This document shows, in pieces, positions 28,680-54,840 of a stretch of 64,000 nucleotides of DNA (its first letter is position 1; every line of letters begins with the position of its first letter). The translations under genes and the position numbers were made by a program. The notes below the pieces were generated by a model. It ran no database searches and was not told the origin of the DNA. It saw only the letters and a list, made by a program, of their open reading frames with translations. The stretch lies in the NCBI RefSeq assembly GCF_044324785.1, contig NZ_CP172127.1; one strand, written 5' to 3'. Source of the stretch: Escherichia coli (lineage in GTDB: Bacteria; Pseudomonadota; Gammaproteobacteria; Enterobacterales; Enterobacteriaceae).

Positions 28680-30329
28680 TTAACCGCGCCACGCTTTATA
28701 GCGGTTAATCAGACCATTGGTCGAGCTATCGTGGCTGCTGATTTCTTTATCATCTTTCAGCTCTGGCAGAATACGGTTCGCCAGTTGTTTACCCAGCTCA
28801 ACGCCCCACTGGTCGAAGGTGAAGATGTTCAGGATCACGCCCTGAGTAAAGATTTTGTGCTCATACAGCGCAATCAACGCACCCAGGCTGAACGGAGTGA
28901 TTTCGCGCAGCAGGATAGAGTTGGTCGGGCGGTTACCTTCGAACACTTTGAACGGCACCACGTAGTCAAGCGTTGCCGGATCTTTACCCTGATCACGATA
29001 TTCCTGCTCAACCACTTCGCGGGATTTACCAAACGCCAGCGCTTCGGTCTGAGCAAAGAAGTTAGACAGCAGTTTCTGGTGATGATCAGAGAGCGGGTTA
29101 TGGGTGATAGCCGGGGCGATGAAATCGCACGGTACCATTTTGGTTCCCTGGTGGATCAGCTGGTAGAACGCGTGCTGACCGTTTGTGCCTGGTTCACCCC
29201 AGATAATCGGGCCAGTCTGGTAATCCACAACGTTACCGTTACGGTCAACATACTTACCGTTGGACTCCATATTGCCCTGCTGGAAGTACGCCGCGAAACG
29301 GTGCATATACTGGTCATACGGCAGAATCGCTTCAGTTTCCGCACCAAAGAAATTGTTGTACCAGATGCCAATCAGCGCCAGCAGTACAGGCAGGTTTTTC
29401 TCGGCAGGCGTGGTGGAGAAATGCTTGTCCATCGCGTGTGCGCCAGAAAGCAGTTCAACGAAGTTATCAAAGCCGATGGAGAGAACAATCGACAGGCCAA
29501 TCGCTGACCACAAAGAGTAACGGCCGCCAACCCAGTCCCAGAACTCGAACATGTTGGCAGTATCAATACCAAACTCGCCAACGGCTTTGGCATTGGTGGA
29601 AAGCGCCGCAAAGTGTTTCGCAACGTGTTTTTCATCACCAGCCGCTTTCAGGAACCAGTCACGCGCACTATGGGCGTTGGTCATGGTTTCCTGAGTGGTG
29701 AAGGTTTTAGATGCTACCAGGAACAGCGTGGTTTCCGGGTTTACTTTTTTCAGCACTTCCGCGATGTGAGTACCATCGACGTTAGAAACAAAGTGCATGT
29801 TCAGGTGATTTTTGTACGGACGCAGTGCTTCGGTCACCATGTACGGGCCGAGGTCAGAACCACCGATCCCGATGTTCACTACGTCAGTGATTGCTTTGCC
29901 GGTATAACCCTTCCACTCACCGGAAATAATCGCTTCCGAGAAGGTTTTCATCTTCTCCAGCACCGCGTTGACTTCTGGCATTACGTCTTTGCCATCAACC
30001 AGAATCGGGGTATTGCTACGGTTACGCAGCGCTACGTGCAGCACGGCGCGGTTTTCGGTGCGGTTGATCTTCTCACCAGAGAACATCGACTTAATCGCGC
30101 CCGCCAGATCGCACTCTTTCGCCAGATCTTGTAATTTCGCCAGCGTCTCTTCAGTGATGCGGTTTTTGGAGTAATCCACCAGCATCTGATCGTCGAAGGT
30201 TGCGGAGAACTTAGAAAAACGATCGCCGTCTTTAGCAAAAAGATCGGCGATCGTAACGTCTTTCATTTCATCGAAGTGTTTCTGTAGTGCCTGCCAGGCA
30301 GCGGTCTGCGTTGGATTGATGTTTTTCAT
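28680..30329 (-). CDS. pgi: Glucose-6-phosphate isomerase
   Basis: Translation [66 protein letters not shown]... (549 aa) matches Pgi. Confidence 0.97.
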
Positions 30330-30540
30330 TAGCAATACTCTTCTGATTTTGAGAATTGTGACTTTGGAAGATTGTAGCGCCAGTCACAGAAAAATGTGAT
30401 GGTTTTAGTGCCGTTAGCGTAATGTTGAGTGTAAACCCTTAGCGCAGTGAAGCATTTATTAGCTGAACTACTGACCGCCAGGAGTGGATGAAAAATCCGC
30501 ATGACCCCATCGTTGACAACCGCCCCGCTCACCCTTTATT

Positions 30541-30853
30541 TATAAATGTACTACCTGCGCTAGCGCAGGCCAGAAGAGGCGCGTTGCCCAAGTAACGGTG
30601 TTGGAGGAGCCAGTCCTGTGATAACACCTGAGGGGGTGCATCGCCGAGGTGATTGAACGGCTGGCCACGTTCATCATCGGCTACAGGGGCTGAATCCCCT
30701 GGGTTGTCACCAGAAGCGTTCGCAGTCGGGCGTTTCGCAAGTGGTGGAGCACTTCTGGGTGAAAATAGTAGCGAAGTATCGCTCTGCGCCCACCCGTCTT
30801 CCGCTCTTCCCTTGTGCCAAGGCTGAAAATGGATCCCCTGACACGAGGTAGTT
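30541..30853 (+). ncRNA. lysC 5' leader containing the lysine riboswitch (L-box)
   Basis: Long structured leader directly upstream of lysC (gtactacctgcgctagcgcaggccagaagaggcgcgttgcccaagtaacggtgttggaggagccagtcctgtgataacacctgagggggtgcatcgccgaggtg...), which I recognise as the E. coli lysC lysine-riboswitch leader. Aptamer boundaries are approximate. A possible promoter (TTGACA at 30513..30518) lies just upstream. Confidence 0.7.
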
Positions 30854-32203
30854 ATGTCTGAAATTGTTGTCTCCAAATTTGGCGGTACCAGCGTAGCTGA
30901 TTTTGACGCCATGAACCGCAGCGCTGATATTGTGCTTTCTGATGCCAACGTACGTTTAGTTGTCCTCTCGGCTTCTGCTGGTATCACTAATCTGCTGGTC
31001 GCTTTAGCGGAAGGACTGGAACCTGGCGAGCGATTCGAAAAACTCGACGCTATTCGCAACATCCAGTTTGCCATTCTGGAACGTCTGCGTTACCCGAACG
31101 TTATCCGTGAAGAGATTGAACGTCTGCTGGAGAACATTACTGTTCTGGCAGAAGCGGCGGCGCTGGCAACGTCTCCGGCGCTGACAGATGAACTGGTCAG
31201 CCACGGCGAGCTGATGTCGACCCTGCTGTTTGTCGAAATCCTGCGCGAACGCGATGTTCAGGCACAGTGGTTTGATGTACGTAAAGTGATGCGTACCAAC
31301 GACCGATTTGGTCGTGCAGAGCCAGATGTAGCCGCGCTGGCGGAACTGGCCGCGCTGCAGCTGCTCCCACGCCTCAATGAAGGCTTAGTGATCACCCAGG
31401 GATTTATCGGTAGCGAAAATAAAGGTCGGACAACGACGCTTGGCCGTGGAGGCAGCGATTATACGGCAGCCTTGCTGGCGGAGGCTTTACACGCATCTCG
31501 TGTTGATATCTGGACCGACGTCCCGGGCATCTACACCACCGATCCACGCGTGGTTTCCGCAGCAAAACGCATTGATGAAATCGCGTTTGCCGAAGCGGCA
31601 GAGATGGCAACTTTTGGTGCAAAAGTACTGCATCCGGCAACGTTGCTACCCGCAGTACGTAGCGATATCCCGGTCTTTGTTGGCTCCAGCAAAGACCCAC
31701 GCGCAGGTGGTACGCTGGTGTGCAATAAAACTGAAAATCCGCCGCTATTCCGCGCGCTGGCGCTTCGTCGCAATCAGACTCTGCTCACTTTGCACAGCCT
31801 GAATATGCTGCATTCTCGCGGTTTCCTCGCGGAAGTTTTCGGCATCCTCGCGCGGCATAATATTTCGGTAGACTTAATCACCACGTCAGAAGTGAGCGTG
31901 GCATTAACCCTTGATACCACCGGTTCAACCTCCACTGGCGATACCTTGCTGACGCAATCTCTGCTGATGGAGCTGTCTGCACTATGCCGGGTAGAAGTGG
32001 AGGAAGGTCTGGCGCTGGTCGCGTTGATTGGCAATGACCTGTCAAAAGCCTGCGGCGTTGGCAAAGAGGTATTCGGCGTACTGGAACCGTTCAACATTCG
32101 CATGATTTGTTACGGCGCATCCAGCCATAACCTGTGCTTCCTGGTGCCCGGCGAAGATGCCGAGCAGGTGGTGCAAAAACTGCATAGTAATTTGTTTGAG
32201 TAA
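30854..32203 (+). CDS. lysC: Lysine-sensitive aspartokinase III
   Basis: Translation MSEIVVSKFGGTSVADFDAMNRSADIVLSDANVRLVVLSASAGITNLLVALAEG... (449 aa) matches LysC. Confidence 0.97.
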   Translation: MSEIVVSKFGGTSVADFDAMNRSADIVLSDANVRLVVLSASAGITNLLVALAEGLEPGERFEKLDAIRNIQFAILERLRYPNVIREEIERLLENITVLAEAAALATSPALTDELVSHGELMSTLLFVEILRERDVQAQWFDVRKVMRTNDRFGRAEPDVAALAELAALQLLPRLNEGLVITQGFIGSENKGRTTTLGRGGSDYTAALLAEALHASRVDIWTDVPGIYTTDPRVVSAAKRIDEIAFAEAAEMATFGAKVLHPATLLPAVRSDIPVFVGSSKDPRAGGTLVCNKTENPPLFRALALRRNQTLLTLHSLNMLHSRGFLAEVFGILARHNISVDLITTSEVSVALTLDTTGSTSTGDTLLTQSLLMELSALCRVEVEEGLALVALIGNDLSKACGVGKEVFGVLEPFNIRMICYGASSHNLCFLVPGEDAEQVVQKLHSNLFE

Positions 32204-32455
32204 ATACTGTATGGCCTGGAAGCTATATTTCGGGCCGTATTGATTTTCTTGTCACTATGCTCATCAATAAACGAGCCTGTACTCTGTTAACCAACGTCTT
32301 TATCGGAGAATAATTGCCTTTAATTTTTTTATCTGCATCTCTAATTAATTATCGAAAGAGATAAATAGTTAAGAGAAGGCAAAATGAATATTATCAGTTC
32401 TGCTCGCAAACGAATTCCCGTACACTGAACTCTCTGGCTCACTGAGGGCACCATC

Positions 32456-32728
32456 ATGGCACTCCCCCGTATTACCCAAAAAGAGATGACTGAACGCGAG
32501 CAGCGTGAACTTAAAACACTGCTGGATCGGGCGCGGATTGCGCATGGTCGCGTACTGACCAACTCCGAAACCAACAGCATTAAGAAAGAGTACATCGATA
32601 AATTAATGGTCGAGCGTGAGGCTGAAGCGAAAAAAGCCCGCCAGTTAAAGAAAAAGCAGGCTTATAAACCGGATCCTGAGGCGTCATTTAGCTGGTCAGC
32701 AAATACGTCGACGCGCGGCAGGCGCTGA
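32456..32728 (+). CDS. yjbD: Small basic protein YjbD (DUF3811-like)
   Basis: 90-aa ORF MALPRITQKEMTEREQRELKTLLDRARIAHGRVLTN... in the conserved position between lysC and rluF. Its stop codon abuts the rluF stop on the other strand. Confidence 0.8.
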   Translation: MALPRITQKEMTEREQRELKTLLDRARIAHGRVLTNSETNSIKKEYIDKLMVEREAEAKKARQLKKKQAYKPDPEASFSWSANTSTRGRR

Positions 32729-33601
32729 TTAACGCCCCTTCTTTTTACGCCCCGGCGAGGTAAAACGCTTACCGTTGGACGCCGGGCGACCGCCTTTTTC
32801 CGCCGTTTTTTCCATCTTAACGACTGGACGTTTGATGCCTACCGTTTTCGGTTTGGCCTTCGCTTTAGGTTTTGCCTCGGAAGAGGAATTTTCAATGTGC
32901 TTAAAGAGATCGATTAACTCATCGTCGGTTAAATCGCGCCACTCACCCAGCGGAATGCCGCTTAAGCTGACGTTCATAATGCGCGTACGTTCCAGCTTTT
33001 TCACTTCGTAACCAAAGTGCTCGCACATGCGACGAATCTGACGGTTCAGCCCCTGCACCAGGGTAATGCGGAAGACAAACGGCGCTTCTTTTTTGACTTT
33101 GCACTTTTTCGTCACCGTCCCGAGGATCGGCACCCCCGCCCCCATACCACGAATAAATTCATCGGTAATCGGTTTATCGACCGTCACCAGATACTCTTTC
33201 TCATGATCGTTACCCGCACGGAGGATCTTATTCACCAGATCGCCGTGATTGGTGAGGAAAATCAGCCCCTGAGAGTCTTTATCCAGGCGGCCAATCGGGA
33301 ACACGCGTTTGCTGTGGTTAACGAAATCGACAATGTTATCGCGCTCGCCATCTTCGGTGGTGCTGACAATACCGACGGGCTTGTTCAGGGCGATAAGTAC
33401 CAAATCTTCGGCTTCCCGAGGCTCAATCAACTGACCGTTTACTTTCACAACGTCGCCGGGTTTCACCTGATCGCCAATGGTGGCTCGCTTGCCATTAAGG
33501 AACACATTGCCTTGCTCGATATAGCGATCCGCTTCGCGGCGTGAGCAAATTCCGCTTTCGCTGATGTATTTATTTAAACGGACTGATGAGTCGGGCAGCA
33601 T
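32729..33601 (-). CDS. rluF: 23S rRNA pseudouridine synthase F
   Basis: Translation [40 protein letters not shown]... (290 aa): S4 domain plus RsuA-family catalytic core ([10 protein letters not shown]). Confidence 0.93.
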
Positions 33602-33948
33602 AAATTCTCCTGTAAAACGCGGAATATACCGTACCTCTTAGCGGGGAAAAACAGGGTTATGCGGCAACGTCGAAATTAAATGTGATCTGCCACGCCTTTT
33701 ATCACAAAAGTGTCTCCGGAAGTACGATGCAAATTTGCCTGGCAAAATAAGGATAATCAACATATTACGAATCGCTGCACACCTGTGCTGATGACTACTA
33801 CGCAGAGAAACAAATGTGCAAGAGAAAGCGCTATTTCTCCCCATGCAAAGAGTGAAAAATCGCTTTGAAAGGCCATCATGATGGGGTTATATCAGATCAA
33901 GCGGTGAGAAAGCGTATTTGCACAAATGTGCAGAACCAGGAGGCGGCA

Positions 33949-34896
33949 ATGGAAAACAGTGACGATATCCGTTTGATTGTGAAGATTGCCCAACTCTATT
34001 ACGAACAGGATATGACGCAGGCGCAAATCGCGCGCGAACTGGGTATTTACCGCACCACCATCAGCCGCTTGCTTAAACGAGGCCGCGATCAGGGAATTGT
34101 CACCATCGCCATCAACTATGACTACAACGAAAATCTCTGGCTGGAGCAGCAACTGAAGCAAAAGTTTGGCCTGAAAGACGTTGTGGTGGTGTCGGGAAAT
34201 GATGAGGATGAAGAGACTCAACTGGCGATGATGGGGTTACACGGCGCGCAACTGCTGGATCGCTTGCTGGAGCCTGGCGATATTGTCGGTTTTTCCTGGG
34301 GTCGCGCGGTGAGCGCACTGGTTGAAAACTTGCCGCAGGCGGGGCAATCGCGGCAGTTAATCTGCGTACCAATTATTGGCGGACCGTCCGGTAAACTCGA
34401 AAGCCGCTATCATGTAAACACATTAACCTACAGCGCGGCAGCGAAGTTGAAAGGGGAATCGCATCTCGCGGATTTTCCGGCTCTACTGGATAACCCATTA
34501 ATTCGTAATGGGATCATGCAGTCTCAGCACTTTAAAACCATCTCTGCCTACTGGGATAATCTGGATGTCGCCCTGGTGGGAATTGGCTCACCGGCCATTC
34601 GCGACGGCGCTAACTGGCATGCGTTTTATGGTGGTGAAGAGAGTGACGACCTGAATGCCCGCCAGGTTGCTGGCGATATTTGCTCGCGCTTTTTTGATAT
34701 TCACGGCGCAATGGTTGAAACGAATATGAGCGAAAAAACACTCTCTATCGAAATGAATAAATTAAAGCAGGCGCGATATTCCATTGGCATTGCCATGAGC
34801 GAAGAAAAATACAGTGGAATTGTTGGTGCACTGCGTGGAAAATATATTAATTGTCTGGTAACGAATAGCAGCACAGCTGAACTATTACTGAAATAA
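33949..34896 (+). CDS. sorC: SorC-family (DeoR-like) transcriptional regulator of the sorbose operon
   Basis: 315-aa product MENSDDIRLIVKIAQLYYEQDMTQAQIARELGIYRTTISRLLKRGRDQGIVTI...: N-terminal HTH plus sugar-phosphate-binding SorC domain. ATG at 33949 follows CAGGAGG. First gene of a sorCDFBAME-type cluster. Confidence 0.85.
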   Translation: MENSDDIRLIVKIAQLYYEQDMTQAQIARELGIYRTTISRLLKRGRDQGIVTIAINYDYNENLWLEQQLKQKFGLKDVVVVSGNDEDEETQLAMMGLHGAQLLDRLLEPGDIVGFSWGRAVSALVENLPQAGQSRQLICVPIIGGPSGKLESRYHVNTLTYSAAAKLKGESHLADFPALLDNPLIRNGIMQSQHFKTISAYWDNLDVALVGIGSPAIRDGANWHAFYGGEESDDLNARQVAGDICSRFFDIHGAMVETNMSEKTLSIEMNKLKQARYSIGIAMSEEKYSGIVGALRGKYINCLVTNSSTAELLLK

Positions 34897-34965
34897 AAAT
34901 CTTCCCGATGTTTACCGTAATAAAAATTACGGCGGGTCCCTATTATCTAAAATCAGGAGTCTGTT

Positions 34966-35772
34966 ATGCAAACGTGGTTAAATTTGCAGGATAAAATCAT
35001 TATCGTCACCGGCGGCGCATCCGGTATTGGTCTGGCGATTGTAGAGGAATTATTAGCACAAGGCGCAAATGTACAGATGGTCGATATTCACGGTGGCGAT
35101 GGTCAATATGAAGGTCATAAAGGCTATCAGTTTTGGCCGACCGATATTTCCAGCGCCAAAGAGGTAAATCATACGGTAGCGGAAATTATCCAGCGTTTTG
35201 ATCGCATCGACGGTCTGGTCAATAACGCCGGGGTCAATTTCCCGCGTCTGCTGGTCGATGAGAAAGCGCCTGCCGGGCAGTATGAACTCAACGAAGCTGC
35301 ATTCGAAAAAATGGTCAATATCAACCAGAAAGGCGTTTTTCTGATGTCACAGGCGGTGGCGCGACAGATGGTCAAACAACATGATGGCGTGATTGTGAAT
35401 GTTTCCTCAGAAAGTGGACTGGAAGGCTCAGAAGGCCAAAGCTGTTACGCCGCGACCAAAGCCGCGCTTAATAGCTTCACGCGCTCCTGGTCGAAAGAGC
35501 TGGGTAAGCACGGTATCCGTGTGGTCGGTATCGCGCCGGGGATTCTGGAAAAAACAGGACTGCGCACGCCGGAATATGAAGAAGCGCTGGCGTGGACGCG
35601 CAATATCACCGTCGAGCAGCTGCGTGAAGGCTATACCAAAAATTCCATTCCTATTGGGCGCGCCGGAAGATTAGCAGAAGTGGCTGATTTTGTTTGTTAT
35701 CTGCTGTCTGAACGCGCCAGCTATATCACCGGAGTAACCACTAACATTGCAGGCGGCAAAACGCGCGGTTAA
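34966..35772 (+). CDS. sorD: Short-chain dehydrogenase/reductase (D-glucitol-6-phosphate dehydrogenase type)
   Basis: 268-aa SDR with the TGGASGIG cofactor motif and YxxxK active-site region (SCYAATKAAL); second gene of the sor cluster. Confidence 0.85.
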   Translation: MQTWLNLQDKIIIVTGGASGIGLAIVEELLAQGANVQMVDIHGGDGQYEGHKGYQFWPTDISSAKEVNHTVAEIIQRFDRIDGLVNNAGVNFPRLLVDEKAPAGQYELNEAAFEKMVNINQKGVFLMSQAVARQMVKQHDGVIVNVSSESGLEGSEGQSCYAATKAALNSFTRSWSKELGKHGIRVVGIAPGILEKTGLRTPEYEEALAWTRNITVEQLREGYTKNSIPIGRAGRLAEVADFVCYLLSERASYITGVTTNIAGGKTRG

Positions 35773-35781
35773 GGAGGCTTT

Positions 35782-36189
35782 ATGGTCAATGCCATTTTTT
35801 GCGCCCACGGCAAATTAGCCTGCGCCATGCTGGAATCGGTTCAGATGGTGTACGGCGATGCCAGGGTCGAGGCCGTTGAATTTGTGCCCGGCGAGAACGC
35901 CGGAGACATTGTGGCAAAGCTGGAGAAGTTAGTGAGCATTCACAATCATGACGAGTGGCTAATCGCCGTGGATTTACAGTGCGGCAGCCCGTGGAATGCG
36001 GCAGCGATGCTTGCGATGCGCAATCCTCGCCTGCGGGTAATCAGCGGCCTTTCTCTGCCGCTGGCGCTCGAACTGGTTGATAACCAGGACAGCATGAATG
36101 TTGATGAACTGTGTGAACACCTGACGCAAATCGCAAAGCAAACCTGCGTCGTCTGGAGACAGGTGGCAACAGCAGAGGAGGATTTCTGA
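35782..36189 (+). CDS. sorF: PTS mannose/sorbose-family EIIA component
   Basis: 135-aa product MVNAIFCAHGKLACAMLESVQMV... (EIIA-Man fold). Its stop overlaps the sorB start (TGATG). Confidence 0.85.
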   Translation: MVNAIFCAHGKLACAMLESVQMVYGDARVEAVEFVPGENAGDIVAKLEKLVSIHNHDEWLIAVDLQCGSPWNAAAMLAMRNPRLRVISGLSLPLALELVDNQDSMNVDELCEHLTQIAKQTCVVWRQVATAEEDF

Positions 36190-36683
36190 TGAACATTACG
36201 CTCGCCCGCATTGATGACCGCCTGATCCACGGCCAGGTCACTACCGTCTGGTCTAAAGTGGCTAACGCCCAGCGCATTATTATCTGCAATGACGAAGTTT
36301 ATAACGATGAAGTTCGCCGGACATTATTGCGTCAGGCTGCGCCACCGGGAATGAAGGTTAACGTGGTCAATATTGAAAAAGCCGTCGCGGTTTATCACAA
36401 CCCGCAATATCAGGACGAAACCGTTTTTTATCTTTTCACTCGCCCACAGGATGCCTTAGCGATGGTTCGCCAGGGGGTAAAAATAGGCACCCTGAATATT
36501 GGCGGCATGGCCTGGCGGCCCGGTAAAAAACAGTTAACCAAAGCGGTTTCATTAGATGATGATGATATTAACGCATTTCATGAGTTAAATAATCTTGGCG
36601 TCATACTGGATTTACGCGTCGTAGCGTCAGATCCCTCAATCAATATTATCGACAAAATAAACGAACAGTTAATCGCAAATTAA
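36189..36683 (+). CDS. sorB: PTS mannose/sorbose-family EIIB component
   Basis: 164-aa product MNITLARIDDRLIHGQVTTVWSK..., with the EIIB-Man phosphohistidine motif (DDRLIHGQV). Confidence 0.88.
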   Translation: MNITLARIDDRLIHGQVTTVWSKVANAQRIIICNDEVYNDEVRRTLLRQAAPPGMKVNVVNIEKAVAVYHNPQYQDETVFYLFTRPQDALAMVRQGVKIGTLNIGGMAWRPGKKQLTKAVSLDDDDINAFHELNNLGVILDLRVVASDPSINIIDKINEQLIAN

Positions 36684-36748
36684 ATAATAGCGCCTGTGTA
36701 CATATGCTTTAACAGGCAGGGATGACGACACTTAAAAGGTGACAAATC

Positions 36749-37546
36749 ATGGAAATAAGTACCCTACAAATCATTGCTATATTTCTTTTTTCCTGTATTG
36801 CCGGAATGGGCAGCGTGCTGGATGAATTTCAGACTCATCGCCCATTAATTGCCTGTACGGTGATTGGTTTAATTCTCGGTGATTTAAAAACCGGAATAAT
36901 ACTCGGTGGTACGCTGGAATTGATAGCTCTCGGCTGGATGAACGTCGGCGCGGCGCAATCTCCGGATTCCGCGCTCGCCAGCATTATCTCCGCCATTCTG
37001 GTTATCGTTGGTCAGCAAAGCATCGCCACCGGTATCGCCATCGCGTTGCCTGTGGCTGCTGCAGGCCAGGTACTGACGGTGTTTGCCCGCACCATCACCG
37101 TAGTGTTCCAGCACGCGGCGGATAAAGCAGCGGAAGAAGCACGGTTTCGCACTCTCGATATTCTGCATGTCTCCGCGCTTGGCGTGCAGGCGCTGCGCGT
37201 TGCTATTCCGGCACTAATTGTCTCGCTGTTCGTCAGCGCTGATATGGTGAGCAATATGCTGAGCGCCATTCCCGAATTTGTGACCCGTGGACTGCAGATT
37301 GCTGGCGGTTTTATCGTGGTGGTCGGTTACGCCATGGTGCTTCGCATGATGGGCGTGAAATATTTGATGCCTTTCTTTTTCCTCGGTTTCCTCGCAGGTG
37401 GCTACCTCGATCTCAGTCTGCTGGCGTTCGGTGGCGTCGGCGTGATCATGGCCCTGCTCTACATCCAGTTAAATCCACAGTGGCGTAAAGCTGAACCACA
37501 TCCCCAGACCACCACTATCACCGCCCTTGACCAACTTGATGATTAA
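36749..37546 (+). CDS. sorA: PTS mannose/sorbose-family EIIC component
   Basis: 265-aa polytopic membrane protein MEISTLQIIAIFLFSCIAGMGSVLDEF..., typical of EIIC-Man. Confidence 0.85.
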   Translation: MEISTLQIIAIFLFSCIAGMGSVLDEFQTHRPLIACTVIGLILGDLKTGIILGGTLELIALGWMNVGAAQSPDSALASIISAILVIVGQQSIATGIAIALPVAAAGQVLTVFARTITVVFQHAADKAAEEARFRTLDILHVSALGVQALRVAIPALIVSLFVSADMVSNMLSAIPEFVTRGLQIAGGFIVVVGYAMVLRMMGVKYLMPFFFLGFLAGGYLDLSLLAFGGVGVIMALLYIQLNPQWRKAEPHPQTTTITALDQLDD

Positions 37547-37556
37547 CGGAGCCATC

Positions 37557-38381
37557 ATGGAACAGAGAAAAATTACACGCAGCGATCTGGTGAGCATGTT
37601 TCTGCGCTCCAACCTGCAACAGGCGTCCTTCAACTTTGAACGCATTCATGGGCTGGGCTTTTGTTACGACATGATCCCCGCCATCAAACGACTTTACCCA
37701 TTAAAAGAGGATCAGGTTGCGGCGCTCAGGCGACACCTGGTGTTCTTCAATACCACGCCAGCCGTATGTGGCCCGGTCATCGGCGTCACTGCCGCCATGG
37801 AAGAGGCGCGGGCCAACGGCGCGGAAATTGATGACGGTACCATTAACGGCATCAAAGTCGGTCTGATGGGACCATTGGCAGGAGTTGGCGATCCACTGGT
37901 CTGGGGAACGCTGCGCCCGATTACCGCCGCGCTCGGCGCATCTCTGGCACTTTCGGGCAACATTCTCGGCCCGCTGCTGTTTTTCTTTATTTTCAATGCG
38001 GTGCGTCTGGCGATGAAGTGGTATGGCCTACAGCTCGGCTTTCGCAAAGGGGTGAATATCGTCAGCGATATGGGCGGGAATGTGCTGCAAAAACTCACCG
38101 AAGGCGCGTCGATTCTCGGACTGTTTGTGATGGGCGTGCTGGTGACCAAATGGACGTCAATCAACGTACCGTTGGTGGTTTCACAAACGCATGCCGCCGA
38201 TGGCTCCACCGTCACCATGACCGTGCAGAACATTCTCGACCAACTTTGCCCTGGTTTGCTGGCGCTCGGTCTGACGCTACTGATGGTTCGTCTGCTCAAC
38301 AAAAAAATTAACCCGGTATGGCTGATTTTCGCCCTGTTTGGCTTAGGGATTATCGGCAATGCGCTGGGCTTCCTGTCCTGA
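37557..38381 (+). CDS. sorM: PTS mannose/sorbose-family EIID component
   Basis: 274-aa product MEQRKITRSDLVSMFLRSNLQQASFNFERIHGLGFCYDMIPAI..., characteristic EIID-Man N-terminus. ATG at 37557 follows ACGGAG. Confidence 0.85.
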   Translation: MEQRKITRSDLVSMFLRSNLQQASFNFERIHGLGFCYDMIPAIKRLYPLKEDQVAALRRHLVFFNTTPAVCGPVIGVTAAMEEARANGAEIDDGTINGIKVGLMGPLAGVGDPLVWGTLRPITAALGASLALSGNILGPLLFFFIFNAVRLAMKWYGLQLGFRKGVNIVSDMGGNVLQKLTEGASILGLFVMGVLVTKWTSINVPLVVSQTHAADGSTVTMTVQNILDQLCPGLLALGLTLLMVRLLNKKINPVWLIFALFGLGIIGNALGFLS

Positions 38382-38432
38382 TTCTTCGCCCCGGCACGAC
38401 TGCCGGGGCCATCGCTCAACATGAGGTGGTTT

Positions 38433-39662
38433 ATGAAAACAACAGCTCTGCGTCTTTATGGTAAACGTGATTTACGCCTGGAAACCTTTGATCTTCCTGA
38501 AATGCAGGAGGATGAAATCCTCGCGACGGTGGTCACTGACAGCCTGTGCCTCTCTTCCTGGAAAGAGGCCAACCTGGGTGAAAACCATAAAAAAGTACCC
38601 GACGATGTGGCGACCAACCCAATCATCATCGGCCACGAGTTTTGCGGCGATATTCTGGCCGTGGGTAAAAAGTGGCAGCACAAATTCCAGCCGGGTCAGC
38701 GTTATGTGATTCAGGCCAACCTGCAACTCCCCGACCGCCCGGACTGCCCCGGCTACTCCTTCCCGTGGGTGGGCGGCGAAGCCACGCATGTGGTTATCCC
38801 AAATGAGGTTATGGAACAAGATTGCCTGCTGGCATACGACGGCGAAACCTATTTTGAAGGCTCGCTGGTTGAACCGCTTTCCTGCGTGATTGGCGCGTTC
38901 AACGCCAACTATCATCTTCAGGAAGGTAGTTATAACCACACGATGGGGATTCGCCCGCAAGGGCGCACGCTGATCCTCGGCGGCACCGGACCAATGGGAC
39001 TGTTGGCGATTGATTATGCGCTGCATGGACCCGTTAACCCGTCGCTGCTCGTCATTACCGATACCGACAACGACAAATTGAGTTATGCGCGCAAGCACTA
39101 TCCATCAGAACCGCAAACACTGATTCATTATCTCAATGCCGCCGATGCAGCATTTGATACGTTAATGGCACTGAGTGGCGGTCACGGCTTCGATGATATT
39201 TTCGTCTTTGTGCCTAATGAAGGACTGGTGACTCTCGCCTCTTCCTTGCTGGCGACAGATGGTTGTCTGAATTTCTTCGCCGGACCGCAGGATAAGCACT
39301 TCAGCGCGCCAATTAATTTCTACGATGTGCATTATGCATTTACCCACTACGTGGGCACGTCAGGCGGCAATACCGACGACATGCGCGCAGCGGTCAAATT
39401 GATTGAAGAGAAAAAAGTGCAGGCCGCAAAAGTGGTAACACATATTCTTGGGCTGAATGCCGCGGGCGAAACCACGCTTGAATTGCCTGCCGTCGGCGGC
39501 GGCAAAAAGCTGGTGTATACAGGGAAATACCTGCCGCTGACGTCACTCACGCAGATTCAGGATCAAGCACTGGCGGCGATTCTGGCGCGTCATCAGGGGA
39601 TCTGGTCCGGTGAGGCGGAGCAATACCTGCTCGCCCATGCAGAAGCAATTTCCCATGATTAA
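38433..39662 (+). CDS. sorE: Zn-dependent medium-chain dehydrogenase (L-sorbose-1-phosphate reductase type)
   Basis: About 409-aa MDR-family enzyme (MKTTALRLYGKRDLRLETFDLP...; GHEFCGDI zinc-site region). ATG at 38433 follows GAGGTGG. Last gene of the sor cluster. Confidence 0.8.
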   Translation: MKTTALRLYGKRDLRLETFDLPEMQEDEILATVVTDSLCLSSWKEANLGENHKKVPDDVATNPIIIGHEFCGDILAVGKKWQHKFQPGQRYVIQANLQLPDRPDCPGYSFPWVGGEATHVVIPNEVMEQDCLLAYDGETYFEGSLVEPLSCVIGAFNANYHLQEGSYNHTMGIRPQGRTLILGGTGPMGLLAIDYALHGPVNPSLLVITDTDNDKLSYARKHYPSEPQTLIHYLNAADAAFDTLMALSGGHGFDDIFVFVPNEGLVTLASSLLATDGCLNFFAGPQDKHFSAPINFYDVHYAFTHYVGTSGGNTDDMRAAVKLIEEKKVQAAKVVTHILGLNAAGETTLELPAVGGGKKLVYTGKYLPLTSLTQIQDQALAAILARHQGIWSGEAEQYLLAHAEAISHD

Positions 39663-39821
39663 TCGCGCTACTTAACTCTGCATGTCGCTGGCTGGTCGCC
39701 GCGGCAACTTCGCGACCTGATGTGCGGCTGATTGCAGAAGCGGCACAATGTGCACGAGAAGGATAAAAAACATCAGCGCCTTAAGGGGCGCTCAAATTGG
39801 TGGCAAAGTGCACATTGTTTA

Positions 39822-39919
39822 TGCCGGATGCGGAATGAAGCCTTATTCGGCCTACAAAATCGCGAAAATTCAAGACATTGCAATTAGCTTGTAGGCCTGA
39901 TAAGCGTAGCGCATCAGGC
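39822..39919. repeat. REP/BIME pair downstream of sorE
   Basis: gccggatgcggaatgaagccttattcggcctac ... gtaggcctgataagcgtagcgcatcaggca. Confidence 0.8.
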
Positions 39920-40043
39920 AATGCTGTGTTTGTCATCAGGCTCAACGCCCGGTGCAATACGTGACATCGTGAGCCATGTCAGTAAGTGGTTAAATTCGCA
40001 GTGGTAGCATGCCTTCCGTGATTTCTTACTAACCGGAGAAGTA

Positions 40044-40733
40044 ATGGAACTGCTTTTATTGAGTAACTCGACGCTGCCGGGTAAAGCCTGGCTGGAACAT
40101 GCACTGCCGCTAATTGCTGAACAGTTGCAGGGTCGCCGCTCAGCGGTGTTTATCCCTTTCGCTGGCGTAACGCAGACCTGGGATGATTACACAGCGAAAA
40201 CGGCTGCGGTTCTCGCTCCGCTGGGTGTTTCTGTCACCGGTATTCATAGCGTTGTCGATCCCGTTGCCGCGATTGAAAATGCTGAGATCGTGATTGTCGG
40301 CGGCGGTAATACTTTCCAGTTGCTGAAACAGTGCCGCGAGCGCGGGCTGCTGGCACCAATTACTGACGTGGTTAAACGTGGCGCGCTGTATATTGGCTGG
40401 AGCGCTGGCGCTAACCTTGCTTGCCCAACCATTCGTACCACCAACGATATGCCGATTGTCGATCCGCAAGGTTTCGATGCGCTGAATCTGTTCCCGTTGC
40501 AAATCAACCCGCACTTCACCAACGCGCTGCCGGAAGGCCATAAAGGTGAAACCCGTGAACAGCGTATTCGCGAACTGCTGGTCGTCGCGCCAGAACTCAC
40601 AATTATTGGTCTACCGGAAGGTAACTGGATCACAGTGAGTAAAGGTCACGCAACGCTGGGTGGCCCGAACACCACTTATGTGTTTAAGGCTGGTGAAGAA
40701 GCGGTTCCGCTGGAAGCGGGTCACCGTTTTTAA
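40044..40733 (+). CDS. pepE: Dipeptidase E (alpha-aspartyl dipeptidase, S51 family)
   Basis: Translation [42 protein letters not shown]... (229 aa) matches PepE. Confidence 0.93.
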
Positions 40734-40750
40734 ATGAATTGCCGGATGCA

Positions 40751-40820
40751 TAATCCGGCATCTTGTTCATCGTGCCTGATGCGACGCTTTACGCGTCTTA
40801 TCAGGTCTACAGGGTCACGG
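40751..40820. repeat. REP-like palindromes between pepE and yjbB
   Basis: gccggatgcataatccggc hairpin followed by gcctgatgcgacgctttacgcgtcttatcaggtctac. Confidence 0.7.
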
Positions 40821-40822
40821 TA

Positions 40823-42454
40823 TTAATACTCGTCCCGTCCTTCGTCTTCATCCGGCTGTTCCAGCACACTGTAAGCCACCGAACAAAACAGCGAGTTCAG
40901 ACGCTGCATATCTCCCAGTAAGCCTAAATGTAGCGAACTGGTTTCAATGCTTTGCACGTTTTGCTGATGCAGGCGATCGACGTGAGCATGGGAATAACGG
41001 CGATTAAGAATGCGAAAACGATGCTTGCTGCGGCGCAAACGACGGGCGCTGGTAACATCGCCAGAGAAGAAAACCGACATTGCCAGTTTTAAATTACTGA
41101 GCAATTGCTCATAGAGCGCATCCAGTTCCTTCAAGCCATCAAGCGAAAATGCCCGCCGTGCTGCCAGCGATTTATCGGCAATTTCGCTCCCCATGCGCTC
41201 GACGATATCGGAGGCCTGTTCAAGGTTGAGCGACATTTCGATGATCTCCGCCCAGCGGCGCGACTCTTCCTCCGCCAGCTCTTCTTTTGGCATCCGCGCC
41301 AGATACAGCTTAATGGCGGTATAGAGAACGTTGATATCATCAGCCAGCTTACGCAGCTCTTTCTCCTGCCGTGGCTCGCCGTGCATCACTTTATTCAGCC
41401 CTTCCATCATCTGTTCCATGGCGTCGCCAATGCGCAGGGTTTCGCGGGCGGCGTTCGCCAGAGCAAGCGTGGGCGTATCCAGCGCGCTGACATCCAGATG
41501 TTTAGGCCGTAGCTGGGTATCCAGTTCCGGTTCATCGCGAATAATCGTTTTGCAAAACCGTGCCATCGGGTCAACAAATGGCAGCATGACCAGGCAACGT
41601 ACAAGGTTGTAGAAGACATGGAAATAGATCACCAGTTCCGCTTTTGGCAATGGCAACTTCCCCATTGTCTCTGCCAGCAAATGAACAAACGGCAGGATAA
41701 TCAGGCTACCCACCAGCTTAAACAGCAGACTACCCAGCGCGACACGGCGGGCTGCGGCATTGGCGGCACTGTTGTTGAGCATCGCCAGCAGGCCGGAACC
41801 GAGGTTAGCACCAATCACCAGACAGAGCGCCACGGGGAAGGAGATAATGCCTGCGGCGGTCAGAGTCGCGGTCAGCAGTACAGCAGCAAGGCTGGAGTAG
41901 CTGATAATGGCGAACATCGCGCCAATCAGCGCATCCAGCAGAATATCGCCGGTCAGCGAGGCAAAGATCACCTGAACGCCGTTTGCCTGGGTGATCGGCG
42001 TTACGGCCTGCACAATCAACTCCAGCGCCAGCAAAATCAGCCCAAGACCAATACCGACGCGGCCCAGTTGCCCGGCGCGTGACTGTTTGCGTCCGAGGAA
42101 AAAAATCACGCCGATAAAAATAAGTAACGGTGACAGCCAGGATAAGTCGAAGGTGAGAATACGCGCCATTAGCGCCGTCCCGACATCTGCACCCAGCACA
42201 ATCACCAGAGCCGGTGCGAGGGCAACCAAATCCTGAGCGACGAACGAGGTCACCAGCATGGTGGTGGCATTACTGCTCTGCACCAGTGCGGTAACGCCGA
42301 TCCCCGCGCAAAAGGCAAGCGGCTTCTTTTCGACGCTTCGGCTAAGAACAGTACGCAGACGCGCGCCGAAGACGCGCATTACGCCTGTTCGAACAATATG
42401 CGTCCCCCAGACCAACAGGGCGACGGCAGAAAGCAGGTGAAGCAGCGTTAACAC
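40823..42454 (-). CDS. yjbB: Na+/phosphate-cotransporter-family membrane protein
   Basis: 543-aa ORF with an N-terminal polytopic membrane domain and a C-terminal soluble domain, in the conserved position between pepE and metH. Confidence 0.85.
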   Translation of the reverse strand: MLTLLHLLSAVALLVWGTHIVRTGVMRVFGARLRTVLSRSVEKKPLAFCAGIGVTALVQSSNATTMLVTSFVAQDLVALAPALVIVLGADVGTALMARILTFDLSWLSPLLIFIGVIFFLGRKQSRAGQLGRVGIGLGLILLALELIVQAVTPITQANGVQVIFASLTGDILLDALIGAMFAIISYSSLAAVLLTATLTAAGIISFPVALCLVIGANLGSGLLAMLNNSAANAAARRVALGSLLFKLVGSLIILPFVHLLAETMGKLPLPKAELVIYFHVFYNLVRCLVMLPFVDPMARFCKTIIRDEPELDTQLRPKHLDVSALDTPTLALANAARETLRIGDAMEQMMEGLNKVMHGEPRQEKELRKLADDINVLYTAIKLYLARMPKEELAEEESRRWAEIIEMSLNLEQASDIVERMGSEIADKSLAARRAFSLDGLKELDALYEQLLSNLKLAMSVFFSGDVTSARRLRRSKHRFRILNRRYSHAHVDRLHQQNVQSIETSSLHLGLLGDMQRLNSLFCSVAYSVLEQPDEDEGRDEY

Positions 42455-42673
42455 GAGTTCAGGTTCTCCTTATCGTTATATGTTCCTGAAGCAATTGAAT
42501 GACCAAAGGACCGGAAACACACTGACTGGCATCTTTACTGTGCCTTTTGACCTTCGTTTTTCCGGCTAAGATTATTCCAGCCTGATTCCAGTATAAGTGT
42601 TTCATATTAATAAAGAGACAGGGCACTCATTGAGCGCCCTGTTTGTTGTAAGGAAAAGTGACAGATTTGTGAA

Positions 42674-46357
<3,684 letters not shown>

Positions 46358-46556
46358 ACTTGCTCCCGACACGCTCAACCCAGATTTAATAAAAATTCAA
46401 CAAACCATACTGGCATAAACGCATCTGTGGTAAAAGCGACCACCACGCAACATGAGATTTGTTCAACATTAACTCATCGGATCAGTTCAGCAACTATTGC
46501 ATTAGCTAACAATAAAAATGAAAATGATTTCCACGATACAGAAAAAGGAGACTGTC

Positions 46557-47381
46557 ATGGTCGCACCCATTCCCGCGAAACGCGGCAGAAAACCCGCCGT
46601 TGCCACCGCACCAGCGACTGGACAGGTTCAGTCTTTAACGCGTGGCCTGAAATTACTGGAGTGGATTGCCGAATCCAATGGCAGTGTGGCACTCACGGAG
46701 CTGGCGCAACAAGCCGGGTTACCCAATTCCACGACCCACCGCCTGCTAACCACGATGCAACAGCAGGGTTTCGTGCGTCAGGTTGGCGAACTGGGACACT
46801 GGGCAATCGGCGCACATGCCTTTATGGTCGGCAGCAGCTTTCTCCAGAGCCGTAATTTGTTAGCAATTGTTCACCCTATCCTGCGCAATCTAATGGAAGA
46901 GTCTGGCGAAACGGTCAATATGGCGGTGCTTGATCAAAGCGATCACGAAGCGATTATTATCGACCAGGTACAGTGTACCCACCTGATGCGAATGTCCGCG
47001 CCTATCGGCGGTAAATTACCTATGCACGCTTCCGGTGCGGGTAAAGCCTTTTTAGCCCAACTGAGCGAAGAACAGGTGACGAAGCTGCTGCACCGCAAAG
47101 GGTTACATGCCTATACCCACGCAACGCTGGTGTCTCCTGTGCATTTAAAAGAAGATCTCGCCCAAACGCGCAAACGGGGCTATTCATTTGACGATGAGGA
47201 ACATGCACTGGGGCTACGTTGCCTTGCAGCGTGTATTTTCGATGAGCACCGTGAACCGTTTGCCGCAATTTCTATTTCCGGACCGATTTCACGTATTACC
47301 GATGACCGCGTGACCGAGTTTGGCGCGATGGTGATTAAAGCGGCGAAGGAAGTGACGCTGGCGTACGGTGGAATGCGCTGA
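46557..47381 (+). CDS. iclR: Glyoxylate-shunt repressor IclR
   Basis: Translation MVAPIPAKRGRKPAVATAPATGQVQSLTRGLKLLEWIAESNGSVALTELAQQAGLPNSTTHRLL... (274 aa) matches IclR. ATG at 46557 follows AAAGGAG. Confidence 0.95.
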   Translation: MVAPIPAKRGRKPAVATAPATGQVQSLTRGLKLLEWIAESNGSVALTELAQQAGLPNSTTHRLLTTMQQQGFVRQVGELGHWAIGAHAFMVGSSFLQSRNLLAIVHPILRNLMEESGETVNMAVLDQSDHEAIIIDQVQCTHLMRMSAPIGGKLPMHASGAGKAFLAQLSEEQVTKLLHRKGLHAYTHATLVSPVHLKEDLAQTRKRGYSFDDEEHALGLRCLAACIFDEHREPFAAISISGPISRITDDRVTEFGAMVIKAAKEVTLAYGGMR

Positions 47382-47697
47382 CTTTTTCTGGCGGGCAGAG
47401 GCAATATTCTGCCCATCATACCTGAGTGGCAATAGAATAAGGGTGTCTGTTAATCGCATTGATGCCAAAATAACTTAATGTCATACACTTCACACACTTT
47501 TATTAACTCAGTATTATTTTTAAACATCAAACCACTTAATTATTAACAAAATCGCAAGATCTCATTCCACCGAAACTTTTACGGCTGCATTATGAGATTG
47601 AGCGATTTATGATATTTCTTTACTTGTAATCATATTAAATTTTTTCACTGTTCTGATAGTTAAAATTCAAGACATCAATAAACAATGAGATATTTAA

Positions 47698-51598
<3,901 letters not shown>

Positions 51599-51602
51599 TT
51601 AA

Positions 51603-51630
51603 TTCGCCCCTCGCCTTACGGAAAGGGGCG
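51603..51630 (-). promoter_or_regulatory. Stem-loop in the aceA-aceK intergenic region
   Basis: Inverted repeat cgcccct...aggggcg between the aceA stop and aceK start. Stable intergenic structure here is known to lower aceK expression relative to aceA; its role in this strain is inferred. Confidence 0.45.
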
Positions 51631-51637
51631 TTGGTTG

Positions 51638-52942
51638 TTAGAACTGCGATTCTTCGGTGGAGCCGGTCAGAGCAGTAACTGAAGACGTACCGCCCTGAAT
51701 AATGGTCGTCACTTTATCGAAATAACCTGTGCCCACTTCCTGCTGGTGAGAAACGAAGGTGTAACCATCTTTCGCGGCGGCGAATTCCGGTTGCTGCACT
51801 TTCTCAACATAGTGCTTCATACCTTCGCCCTGGGCATAGGCGTTTGCCAGGTCGAACATGTTGAACCACATGCTGTGGATGCCTGCCAGGGTGATGAACT
51901 GGAACTTGTAGCCCATATCCGACAGCTGCTGCTGGAAGCTGGCAATAGTTTTGTCGTCGAGGTTTTTCTGCCAGTTGAACGACGGCGAGCAGTTATAAGC
52001 CAGCAGTTTGCCCGGATATTTCGCGTGGATGGCTTGTGCAAAGCGACGCGCCAGTTCCAGGTCTGGCGTGGAGGTTTCACACCATACCAGGTCAGCATAT
52101 GGCGCATACGCCAGGCCACGGCTGATCGCTTGCTCAATGCCCGCATGAGTACGGAAGAAGCCTTCGCTGGTACGCTCGCCGGTAATAAATTCGCTGTCAT
52201 ACGGGTCGCAATCGGAGGTAATCAGATCCGCCGCATCGGCATCGGTTCGAGCAACCAGCAGGGTTGGAACGCCCGTCACGTCAGCTGCCAGACGCGCCGC
52301 GACCAGTTTCTGAATAGCTTCCTGAGTTGGCACCAGCACTTTGCCGCCCATGTGACCACATTTCTTCACTGATGCCAGCTGATCTTCGAAGTGAACTGCC
52401 GCTGCACCGGCTTCAATCATCGCTTTCATCAGTTCAAAGGCATTCAGGACACCGCCAAAACCGGCTTCCGCATCGGCAACGATCGGCAGGAAGTAATCCA
52501 CATAGCGCGGATCACCCGGCTCAATGCCCGCGGACCATTGGATCTGATCCGCACGGCGGAAGGTATTGTTGATCCGCTCCACCACCGCTGGCACCGAGTT
52601 TGCCGGATAGAGCGACTGATCCGGATACATGCTGGCCGCCAGGTTAGCGTCCGCCGCTACCTGCCATCCCGACAGATAGACCGCTTCAATACCCGCTTTC
52701 GCCTGTTGCAGCGCCTGACCGCCAGTCAGTGCACCGAGGCTGTTGATGTAGCCTTTTTTCGACTCGCCGTGCAGCAGACGCCACATTTTCGCCGCGCCCA
52801 GTTGCGCCAGGGTGCATTCAGGATTGACTGAACCGCGTAATTTCACCACATCTTCCGCGCTGTAGGGGCGAGTAATGCCTTCCCAACGCGGTTGAGTCCA
52901 CTCTTTCTGTAATTCTTCAATTTGTTGTGTACGGGTTTTCAT
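51638..52942 (-). CDS. aceA: Isocitrate lyase
   Basis: Translation [59 protein letters not shown]... (434 aa), including the KKCGH active-site motif. Confidence 0.97.
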
Positions 52943-52971
52943 GTGCAGATGCTCCATAGTTATGTGGTGGT

Positions 52972-54573
52972 TTACGCTAACAGGCGGTAGCCTGGCAGGG
53001 TCAGGAAATCAATTAACTCATCGGAAGTGGTGATCTGTTCCATCAAGCGTGCGGCATCGTCAAAACGCCCCTGGGAGAATCGTTCTTCGCCCAGTTCGCT
53101 GGCAATGACTTTCATCTCTTCGCCCAGCATCTGGCGGAACAAGGCTTTGGTCACCGGTTTGCCATTGCTCAACGTTTTTTGATGATGGATCCACTGCCAG
53201 ATTGAGGTACGGGAAATTTCAGCCGTCGCCGCATCTTCCATCAGGCCATAAATCGGCACGCAGCCGTTGCCAGAGATCCATGCTTCGATGTACTGCACAG
53301 CCACGCGAATGTTGGCGCGCATACCTTCTTCGGTGCGTTCACCATCACAAGGTGCCAGCAGCTGATCGGCAGTAATCGGCGCGTCTTGTTCGCGCATCAC
53401 TTCAAGCTGATTTTTACGGGAGCCGAGAATGTCGTTGAATACCGCCATTGCCGTATCCGCAAGGCCTGGGTGGGCAATCCATGTACCATCGTGACCGTTA
53501 TTAGCTTCCAGCGATTTATCCGCTTTTACTTTGTTGAGCACCTGGTTATTGCGCTCTTCATCTTTGCTCGGAATAAATGCCGCCATACCGCCCATCGCAA
53601 AAGCACCGCGTTTATGGCAGGTTTTAATCAACAGGCGTGAGTAAGCATTCAGAAATGGTTTATCCATCGTCACTGCCTGTCTGTCTGGCAGGACGCGATC
53701 GGGATAGTTTTTCAACGTTTTGATATAACTGAAGATGTAATCCCAACGACCGCAGTTCAGACCAACAATATGGTCACGCAGCGCGTGAAGGATTTCATCC
53801 ATCTGGAACACGGCGGGCAGCGTTTCAATCAGCAACGTCGCCTTGATGGTGCCGCGCGGCAGATTAAAGCGATCTTCTGCATAGCTGAAGACTTCGCTCC
53901 ACCAGGCCGCTTCCTGCCAGGACTGGGTTTTCGGCAGATAGAAATAGGGACCACTGCCCTTTGCCAACAGTGCCTGATAGTTGTGGAAGAAATAGAGCGC
54001 AAAATCAAACAGGCTACCGGGGATTGCCTCACCACGCCAGGTGACATGTTTTTCCGGCAAGTGCAGACCGCGTACCCGACAAATCAACACCGCTGGATTG
54101 GGCTTGAGCTGATAAATTTTGCCTGCTTCATTGGTATAGCTGATGGTGCCGTTAACCGCATCGCGCAGGTTAATTTGCCCGTCGATCACTTTGTTCCAGT
54201 CTGGTGCCAGTGAATCTTCGAAATCGGCCATAAAGACTTTCACATTGGCGTTGAGCGCGTTGATCACCATCTTGCGCTCAACCGGGCCGGTAATCTCTAC
54301 CCGACGATCTTCTAAGTCCGCAGGAATCCCGCGAATTTTCCAGTCAGCATCACGAATGGAAGCTGTTTCCGAAATAAAATCAAGCAACGTTCCGTTATCG
54401 ATATCCTGCTGCTGCTGAATGCGCGCTGCCAGAAGTTTATTGCGTTGTGGCGTAAAATGCGTCACCAGCTCAGTCAGAAATTCTACCGCTTCGGCAGTAA
54501 GAATTTGCTTCTCCTGCTCGCCATACGGCCTTGTGAAAGCCAATTCATCGGTTGTTGTTGCCTGTTCACTCAT
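52972..54573 (-). CDS. aceB: Malate synthase A
   Basis: Translation [61 protein letters not shown]... (533 aa). ATG at 54573 follows GAGGAG; the ORF-track extension to 54648 is rejected. Confidence 0.96.
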
Positions 54574-54795: not shown

Positions 54796-54840
54796 TGAGG
54801 TAAAGTGCTGAATCGCTTAACGATCGACTATCACAGAAGA

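Follow-up and report, generated by a model that had tools for sequence, protein, structure and literature searches.

Whether the L-sorbose operon that lies between rluF and pepE in some Escherichia coli genomes was gained by those strains or lost by relatives such as K-12 is the question raised by a 64,000-nucleotide stretch of E. coli DNA (RefSeq assembly GCF_044324785.1, contig NZ_CP172127.1), referred to here as the window and used for the numbering of all positions. An initial annotation of this DNA had described an L-sorbose phosphotransferase system (PTS) operon at 33602-40043, a span that corresponds exactly to the rluF-pepE intergenic interval, and had regarded it as an insertion. The analysis reported here leaves little doubt that the locus is the canonical enterobacterial sorCDFBAME L-sorbose operon, intact and very probably functional, and that it is ancestral at this site and has been deleted in K-12. 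K-12, like most phylogroup A and B1 genomes, would carry the deletion allele, with 86 bp instead of 6.3 kb, while the window, like most sor-positive E. coli, appears to have lost a translationally coupled eighth gene, sdhL, by a 701-bp deletion.

Seven intact open reading frames (ORFs; 7/7) occupy the interval, all on the + strand and in the order regulator, SDR dehydrogenase, IIA, IIB, IIC, IID and reductase; families were assigned with NCBIfam/TIGRFAM and Pfam models, each bit score being read against the cutoff of its model. The first gene, sorC (33949-34896, 315 aa), encodes a SorC-family regulator with an N-terminal helix-turn-helix (HTH) and a sugar-binding domain (Pfam PF04198, 270 bits), and is followed by sorD (34966-35772, 268 aa), which encodes an SDR-type D-glucitol(sorbitol)-6-phosphate dehydrogenase (NCBIfam NF004817, 498.8 bits, cutoff 304). 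The mannose-family enzyme II (EII) components come next: sorF for EIIA (35782-36189, 135 aa; TIGR00824, 145 bits, cutoff 98), sorB for EIIB (36189-36683, 164 aa; TIGR00854, 223 bits, cutoff 164), which begins on the last nucleotide of sorF, sorA for the EIIC membrane subunit (36749-37546, 265 aa; TIGR00822, 423 bits, cutoff 340), and sorM for the EIID membrane subunit (37557-38381, 274 aa; TIGR00828, 472 bits, cutoff 293). The last gene, sorE (38433-39662, 409 aa), encodes L-sorbose-1-phosphate reductase, with a medium-chain, Zn-type dehydrogenase fold. Its product passes the Pfam ADH_N model and scores 29.6 bits against ADH_zinc_N, slightly below the 31.8 cutoff; the curated models include no SorE-specific one, and the name sorE is that of the orthologue in RefSeq.

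A mechanical ORF list began sorC at TTG 33865, sorM at TTG 37527 and sorE at ATG 38421. The ATG starts at 33949, 37557 and 38433 are preferred because each has a Shine-Dalgarno sequence and agrees with the RefSeq annotation of two other E. coli genomes, N3 and CFT073. A Shine-Dalgarno sequence precedes each of the seven ORFs, and the gaps between the sor genes run from -1 to 69 nt, which is consistent with a single operon. Residues expected to matter for activity are in place: His9 of SorF lies within an AHG motif, the phospho-histidine motif RLIHGQV of SorB is intact, SorD keeps TGGASGIG, NNAG and YAATK, and SorE keeps GHE and GTGPMG (GxGxxG). ORFs and family scans therefore agree with the original description of seven co-oriented sor-type genes, in both order and family.

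Strain CFT073 carries an operon (c4981-c4987) with the same site, the same seven genes and lengths, the same 381-bp sorE-pepE spacer with its sdhL relic, and the same primer sites, differing from the window by point substitutions only. DNA identity across the whole 6442-bp rluF-pepE interval is 97.6%, and the proteins, all of equal length, differ by 0-5 residues each (SorC/c4987 99.0% identity, SorD/c4986 98.1%, SorF/c4985 98.5%, SorB/c4984 100%, SorA/c4983 99.6%, SorM/c4982 98.5%, SorE/c4981 99.5%). The cloning primers of the CFT073 operon have exact matches in the window (33606-33630 and 39663-39692), and the cloned fragment enabled E. coli DH5alpha to grow on L-sorbose (PMC2831201). To the same operon group belong the genes Ec042-4384-4390 of enteroaggregative E. 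coli (EAEC) 042 and the operons of sequence types (ST) ST131 and ST648, for which knock-outs, a knock-in and induction by sorbose have been reported (PMC12817954). The system is thus known rather than novel, as had been stated from the outset, having been characterised in CFT073, ST131, ST648 and Klebsiella pneumoniae.

The sorCDFBAME operon of K. pneumoniae is reportedly the experimentally defined prototype, from the work of Sprenger, Lengeler and Wehmeier. The Klebsiella operon shares with the window its gene order, regulator family, four-subunit mannose-type EII, SorE and SorD, and likewise adjoins rluF; the sor architecture recognised by the initial annotation as that of K. pneumoniae and some E. 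coli strains is indeed that of the Klebsiella loci, CFT073 and N3. In the comparison, which used loci of other Klebsiella species and did not include the K. pneumoniae type sequence, identity to the window was 85-88% for SorC, 88-91% for SorD, 77-79% for SorF, 87-88% for SorB, 93-94% for SorA, 93-96% for SorM and 86-87% for SorE. The examined Klebsiella-group loci differ in having an intact sdhL after sorE and more DNA between sdhL and pepE than the window. Between species, SorF varies more than any other Sor protein (75-93% identity, against 83-100% for the others), which fits the four sorF clusters reported previously (PMC12817954).

The pathway has been worked out by K. pneumoniae and E. 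coli genetics, as cited in PMC2831201 and PMC12817954, and by analogy the encoded proteins would operate as follows. The mannose-family PTS would import L-sorbose and phosphorylate it to L-sorbose-1-phosphate, the phosphate passing from SorF (IIA) to SorB (IIB) and then to the sugar during its passage through the SorA/SorM (IIC/IID) membrane complex. SorE would reduce L-sorbose-1-phosphate to D-glucitol-6-phosphate, and SorD would oxidise the latter to D-fructose-6-phosphate, which would enter glycolysis. SorC, the first gene product, is expected to repress the operon when sorbose is absent and to activate it when sorbose is present, in keeping with the dual repressor/activator role described for this regulator (PMC2943609).

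The flanks bear on the direction of change. On the left lies rluF (32729-33601, - strand; NCBIfam NF007784, 605 bits, cutoff 318), a core gene divergent from sorC that bears this label also in the annotations of N3, CFT073 and MG1655; on the right lies the core gene pepE (40044-40733, + strand; NF003642, 357 bits, cutoff 156). MG1655 has a spacer of only 211 bp between the two genes, which bears out the statement that K-12 lacks sor here, and the alignment that had been proposed for locating the endpoints shows K-12 homology stopping at 33636 and resuming at 39954. Window 33637-39953 (6317 bp) therefore stands in place of 86 bp of K-12 DNA, and 39954-40043 (+ strand) is the pepE upstream region common to both. 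The whole operon is found between rluF and pepE in 2865 of the 5426 complete E. coli genomes, and the sor-negative genomes listed all show the 620-bp empty site seen in K-12. No direct repeats occur at the edges of the K-12-absent segment. A 14-nt direct repeat at 39616/39950 was considered as a target duplication and dropped: its copies are 86% identical, one of them lies inside sorE, and the left border has no match. A loose visual likeness between the first ~30 bp of the 86-bp filler and the rluF-proximal spacer of Citrobacter and Klebsiella was too weak to claim.

Beyond E. coli, the site was followed by a scan for SorE in one genome per species and then by tblastn with the flanking and sor proteins of the window. 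The order yjbD-rluF/sorCDFBAME/pepE-yjbB-metH recurs in Escherichia (E. whittamii, E. albertii and one further species), in Pseudocitrobacter, Raoultella, Enterobacter and Cedecea, in several species each of Citrobacter and Klebsiella, and in other genera. In all, sor occupies the rluF-pepE site in at least six enterobacterial genera, and the same gene order was found in about 30 enterobacterial loci. Within E. coli, the frequency of sor is low in phylogroups A (9.6%) and B1 (12.1%) and exceeds 86% in each of the others (PMC12817954). The operon is thus best read as ancestral at this site in Enterobacteriaceae and the empty site of K-12 as derived by deletion, because the synteny extends over several genera, the G+C content is normal, mobility genes are lacking, divergence resembles that of the core genome, and the phylogroup frequencies agree.

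Three other explanations have to be weighed against this account. That the PTS components might serve another mannose-family substrate, such as mannose, fructose or N-acetylgalactosamine, in an operon that is merely sor-like was raised by the initial annotation itself as a way in which it could be wrong. For the four PTS parts, NCBIfam and Pfam do indeed resolve no further than the mannose/fructose/sorbose subfamily, a sorbose-specific model being absent, and an ST131 sorAM mutant still used sorbose through other PTSs, which points to loose specificity within the family (PMC12817954). SorB, however, scores 305 bits (~87% identity) against the IIB-Sor of K. pneumoniae (1NRZ), compared with 171 bits against E. 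coli ManX IIB, 142 against 1BLE (a "fructose permease" chain) and at most 75 against N-acetylgalactosamine-type IIB chains, and SorC aligns along its entire length with the SorC of K. pneumoniae (2W48; 612 bits, E 2e-183). Because of these scores, the PTS parts are taken as orthologues of the K. pneumoniae sorbose system and not of another mannose-family system. Linkage to sorE and sorD in the Klebsiella order, together with the growth on sorbose conferred by the near-identical CFT073 operon, makes a different substrate exceedingly improbable.

The idea that this strain's lineage gained the operon horizontally, as an island placed between rluF and pepE, draws on the lack of sor in MG1655 and in 47% of the complete E. 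coli genomes, on the discrete, sharp-edged 6.3-kb block of presence or absence, and on a SorE that in Pseudocitrobacter (96%) is nearer to the window than in E. albertii (93%), a hint of inter-genus exchange. What would be expected of such an island, namely mobility genes, tRNA or repeat borders, atypical composition and a site that is not conserved, is not what the locus displays. No mobility gene, integrase, transposase, insertion sequence (IS) element, tRNA or flanking direct repeat was found at the locus, the G+C content of the segment (51.4%) equals that of its surroundings (50.7% for the rest of the window), and the same site is filled in at least six genera. Divergence of the segment from other E. 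coli equals that of flanking core genes: the sor segment is 99.3% identical to N3 and at most 98.1% to all other E. coli, and 20 kb of flanking core DNA are 99.1% identical to N3 and at most 98.0% to the others. With the operon also present in more than 86% of genomes of all phylogroups but A and B1, an acquired island is very improbable, and the original term "inserted" gives the direction of change the wrong way round. As a separate observation, Pseudocitrobacter SorE is 95-96% identical to that of the window, against 93% for E. albertii, yet Pseudocitrobacter pepE reaches only 86-87%; this hints that homologous recombination at the conserved site has carried the sor segment from one genus to another.

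Several points nevertheless weigh against an ancestral, functional operon that K-12 has deleted. The case for loss in K-12 is built on synteny and on frequencies taken from the literature, not on a reconstructed tree. A short-word BLAST of the 86-bp K-12 filler against 46 enterobacterial and other loci returned nothing beyond the common flanks. A sigma-70 consensus scan called no promoter upstream of sorC, and the promoter, operators and integration host factor (IHF) site proposed below are drawn solely from sequence conservation and analogy. Function in the present strain is predicted from its genes, and Shigella keeps sor DNA yet does not use sorbose (PMC2831201), so intact-looking genes are no proof of function. 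By that example the sor genes could be present but cryptic and the strain Sor-negative: in the study of Lehmacher and Bockemuhl (cited in PMC2831201) all 26 Shigella strains tested failed to use L-sorbose, sor DNA is retained in Shigella according to the same authors and to the genomes compared in PMC2831201, and in the window the adjoining sdhL has already decayed. The seven full-length ORFs lie within 0-5 residues of the functional CFT073 set, though, their catalytic and phosphorylation motifs and all conserved regulatory blocks are intact, and the functional CFT073 clone bears the identical sdhL relic, all of which renders a cryptic operon unlikely.

Next to the intact sor genes, sdhL has decayed, as it has in most sor-positive E. 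coli. The shikimate-dehydrogenase-like relic (39655-39766, + strand) was defined by alignment to the intact sdhL of E. whittamii, Escherichia sp. and E. coli JNEC-KY178. It comprises 112 bp, of which 58 bp are the 5' end (39655-39712) and 54 bp the 3' end (39713-39766), joined by an out-of-frame internal deletion of 701 bp at 39712|39713, and codon 7 has changed from CAA to TAA (39673-39675). A tblastn search with sdhL recovered residues 1-21 and 254-270 only, and an intact sdhL ORF of about 270 codons is absent from the window. In about 28 enterobacterial loci the ATG of intact sdhL lies inside ATGATTAA, overlapping the sorE stop by 8 nt. An intact sdhL follows sorE in E. whittamii, E. albertii, Escherichia sp. 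MOD1-EC7003 and the GTDB representative of E. coli, as well as in most Citrobacter, Klebsiella, Raoultella and Enterobacter loci; examples are 11223-12035 in locus L003 and 1501-2313 in locus L083 (JNEC-KY178). The gene is intact in just 177 of the 5426 complete E. coli genomes.

Intact SdhL (270 aa) aligns end to end with SdhL/HI0607 of Haemophilus influenzae (1NPY; E 6e-113) and matches NCBIfam NF009202. To our knowledge, no natural substrate has been assigned to the SdhL class; PDB matches of intact SdhL include 7COK, a 5-ketofructose reductase of the shikimate-dehydrogenase family. CFT073 shares the relic, and its cloning primer contains the codon-7 TAA; since the functional clone bears this same relic, sdhL is dispensable for growth on sorbose. 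A 2025 study in mSystems found sdhL in ST648 only, treated it as an ST-specific insertion and reported its differential expression in the sorbose condition (PMC12817954). The comparative data indicate instead that intact sdhL is the ancestral state, probably lost in most E. coli, rather than an insertion specific to ST648. Around the deletion, window 39635-39839 is only ~85-90% identical to JNEC-KY178 (L083 1481-1558 and 2260-2386), against the usual ~98%; the cause is either rapid decay of the relic or an sdhL-positive haplotype that has itself diverged or arrived through recombination. An 11-nt inverted repeat at 39745-39755/39808-39818 was dropped as an operator or mobile-element end, its left arm lying in the sdhL relic, where intact sdhL reads CAATTTGCAC.

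Regulation of the operon would be exerted in the 347-bp rluF-sorC spacer (33602-33948, + strand), which was aligned over 23 sequences from ~12 genera; the elements below are all on the + strand. A putative sor promoter is proposed at 33865-33893, with a -35 element TTGAAA (33865-33870), a 17-bp spacer and a -10 element TATATC (33888-33893); GCTTTG and GGTTATATCAGATCA blocks at this position are conserved in the alignment. The sigma-70 scan missed it because the final -10 base is not T, so the proposal leans on conservation, and the promoter is probably weak, as an activator-dependent promoter should be. Between the putative -10 and the sorC start lies the near-perfect palindrome TTGCACAAATGTGCAG (33918-33933), almost invariant across the ~12 aligned genera and a candidate proximal, repressing SorC operator. 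Upstream, the palindrome GCACACCTGTGC (33777-33788), with GCAC-N4-GTGC conserved across genera, is a candidate distal SorC operator, and AAACAAATGTGC (33808-33819) appears to be a half-palindromic copy of the motif, 31 bp away centre to centre, in which CAAATGTGCAA is almost invariant across genera. Only two copies of GCACANNTGTGC exist in the 64 kb (0.1 expected), and both lie in this spacer. Further upstream, AATCAACATATTA (33755-33767) may be an IHF site, since it fits the IHF consensus WATCAANNNNTTR, and AATCA(A/G)NNNNTTA is conserved across genera. A conserved block TGTGATC...CACAAAAGTGT lies at 33681-33713; TGTGATC (33681-33687) was dropped as a CRP site, its second half-site being poor (2-3/5) and the block lying some 215 bp ahead of the putative start. 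Inside the sor locus, an Rfam scan covering 30000-43000 gave no match; its only matches were the lysC lysine riboswitch and a sub-threshold one to naRNA4 after pepE.

SorC would accordingly be expected to act via conserved palindromes around GCACA-NN-TGTGC, with a site pair ~80-120 bp upstream of the putative promoter, another site between the -10 and the sorC start, and the IHF-like site further upstream; sites upstream and one downstream of the promoter would fit the activator/repressor role of SorC. A parallel is provided by Bacillus subtilis DeoR, a SorC-family protein of the same HTH subclass, whose operator palindrome TTGAACAAAATTTCAA is bound by a dimer within a tetramer that requires two half-operators (PMC11229326). 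The sor palindrome TTGCACAAATGTGCAG has the same layout, with a second site pair upstream, but half-site sequence and site spacing differ from those of DeoR. Operators known for the family in 2010 were said to be limited to those of DeoR and CggR (PMC2943609). The combined proposal that the sor locus ancestrally had eight cistrons, that about 94% of sor-positive E. coli share the 701-bp relic, and that the TTGCACA-AA-TGTGCAG palindromes are the first defined SorC operators is put forward tentatively, and as a whole it is more doubtful than not.

The pepE-proximal junction is more complex than originally described. The pair of repetitive extragenic palindromic (REP) elements noted after sorE is real, and the sdhL relic between sorE and the REPs had been overlooked. 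Just past the stop of the relic, a GC-rich hairpin, AGCGCC-TTAAGG-GGCGCT (39775-39792), is followed by a T-run on the - strand only and may possibly mark the end of a transcription unit; it was called on the - strand among terminator-like calls that numbered 9 in the region, against 8.1 expected by chance. The left REP (39822-39857, + strand) is a slightly decayed inverted repeat that aligns with a 1-nt gap to TGCCGGATGCGGCGTGAACGCCTTATCCGGCCTAC of other Escherichia, an intact form of which occurs at 3 further places in the window against 0 expected. The right member (39891-39919, - strand) lies in inverted orientation and matches the GCCTGATGCGCTACGCTTATCAGGCCTAC consensus exactly, with 0 such matches expected by chance. 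With its two inverted palindromes the pair has the form of a bacterial interspersed mosaic element (BIME), is conserved in other Escherichia species, and lies downstream of the sdhL relic, within the segment that K-12 lacks and 34 bp short of the right edge of that segment. A query with window 33400-40250 found a median of 18 match places per E. coli genome; one off-locus match, on a plasmid of H30, covers query 6423-6523, that is, window 39822-39922, the REP pair. A comparable BIME-like pair, with the same two REP types inverted, lies at 10347-10446, and a match to naRNA4, a REP-derived nucleoid-associated RNA, at 40740-40807 between pepE and yjbB (40 bits, below the gathering threshold of 59.5) is probably another REP cluster.

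The gene metH (42674-46378) lies two genes past pepE, the order in CFT073 being iclR-metH-yjbB-pepE-sor, and the classical E. coli sor locus is said, after Wehmeier et al. (1992), to adjoin metH/iclR. In the window yjbD and rluF (32728/32729) are convergent, their stop codons abutting with no spacer; in MG1655 an annotated gap of 132 bp separates them, of which ~125 bp do not align and contain a palindromic repeat of the CCCTCACCCTAACCC...GGGGCGAGGGGAC type, so that this gap is a second small indel between the window and K-12. The nearest complete E. coli genome is N3 (99.1-99.3% over 33400-40250 and 40000-60000), and the ~5400 others reach ~98% at most; because N3 alone exceeds ~98%, the window is assigned to a sparsely sampled E. 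coli lineage. An ORF the size of arpA (47698-49884, 728 aa) lies in a region annotated espL4 in RefSeq; presence of arpA would, under the Clermont phylotyping scheme, presumably argue against phylogroups B2 and F. A lysine riboswitch (30566-30762; Rfam RF00168, 99.5 bits) lies upstream of lysC, as expected for that gene.

The sor operon is textbook material, an accessory catabolic module already mapped, sequenced and cloned, and lately studied again as a marker of fitness in high-risk E. coli lineages. A strain that carries it is not K-12, is unlikely to be a typical member of phylogroup A or B1, and is predicted to be Sor-positive. The annotation of the locus should read "retained; deleted in K-12", with a sorE-pepE spacer made up of the sdhL relic followed by the REP pair. 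The useful points are that K-12 probably represents a deletion of an ancestral locus, that the "ST648-specific" sdhL appears ancestral, and that cross-genus alignment yields candidate SorC operators. Sorbose co-induces sdhL in an ST648 strain (PMC12817954), and if SdhL does act on a sorbose-related compound, the operon would provide a physiological context for the SdhL class.

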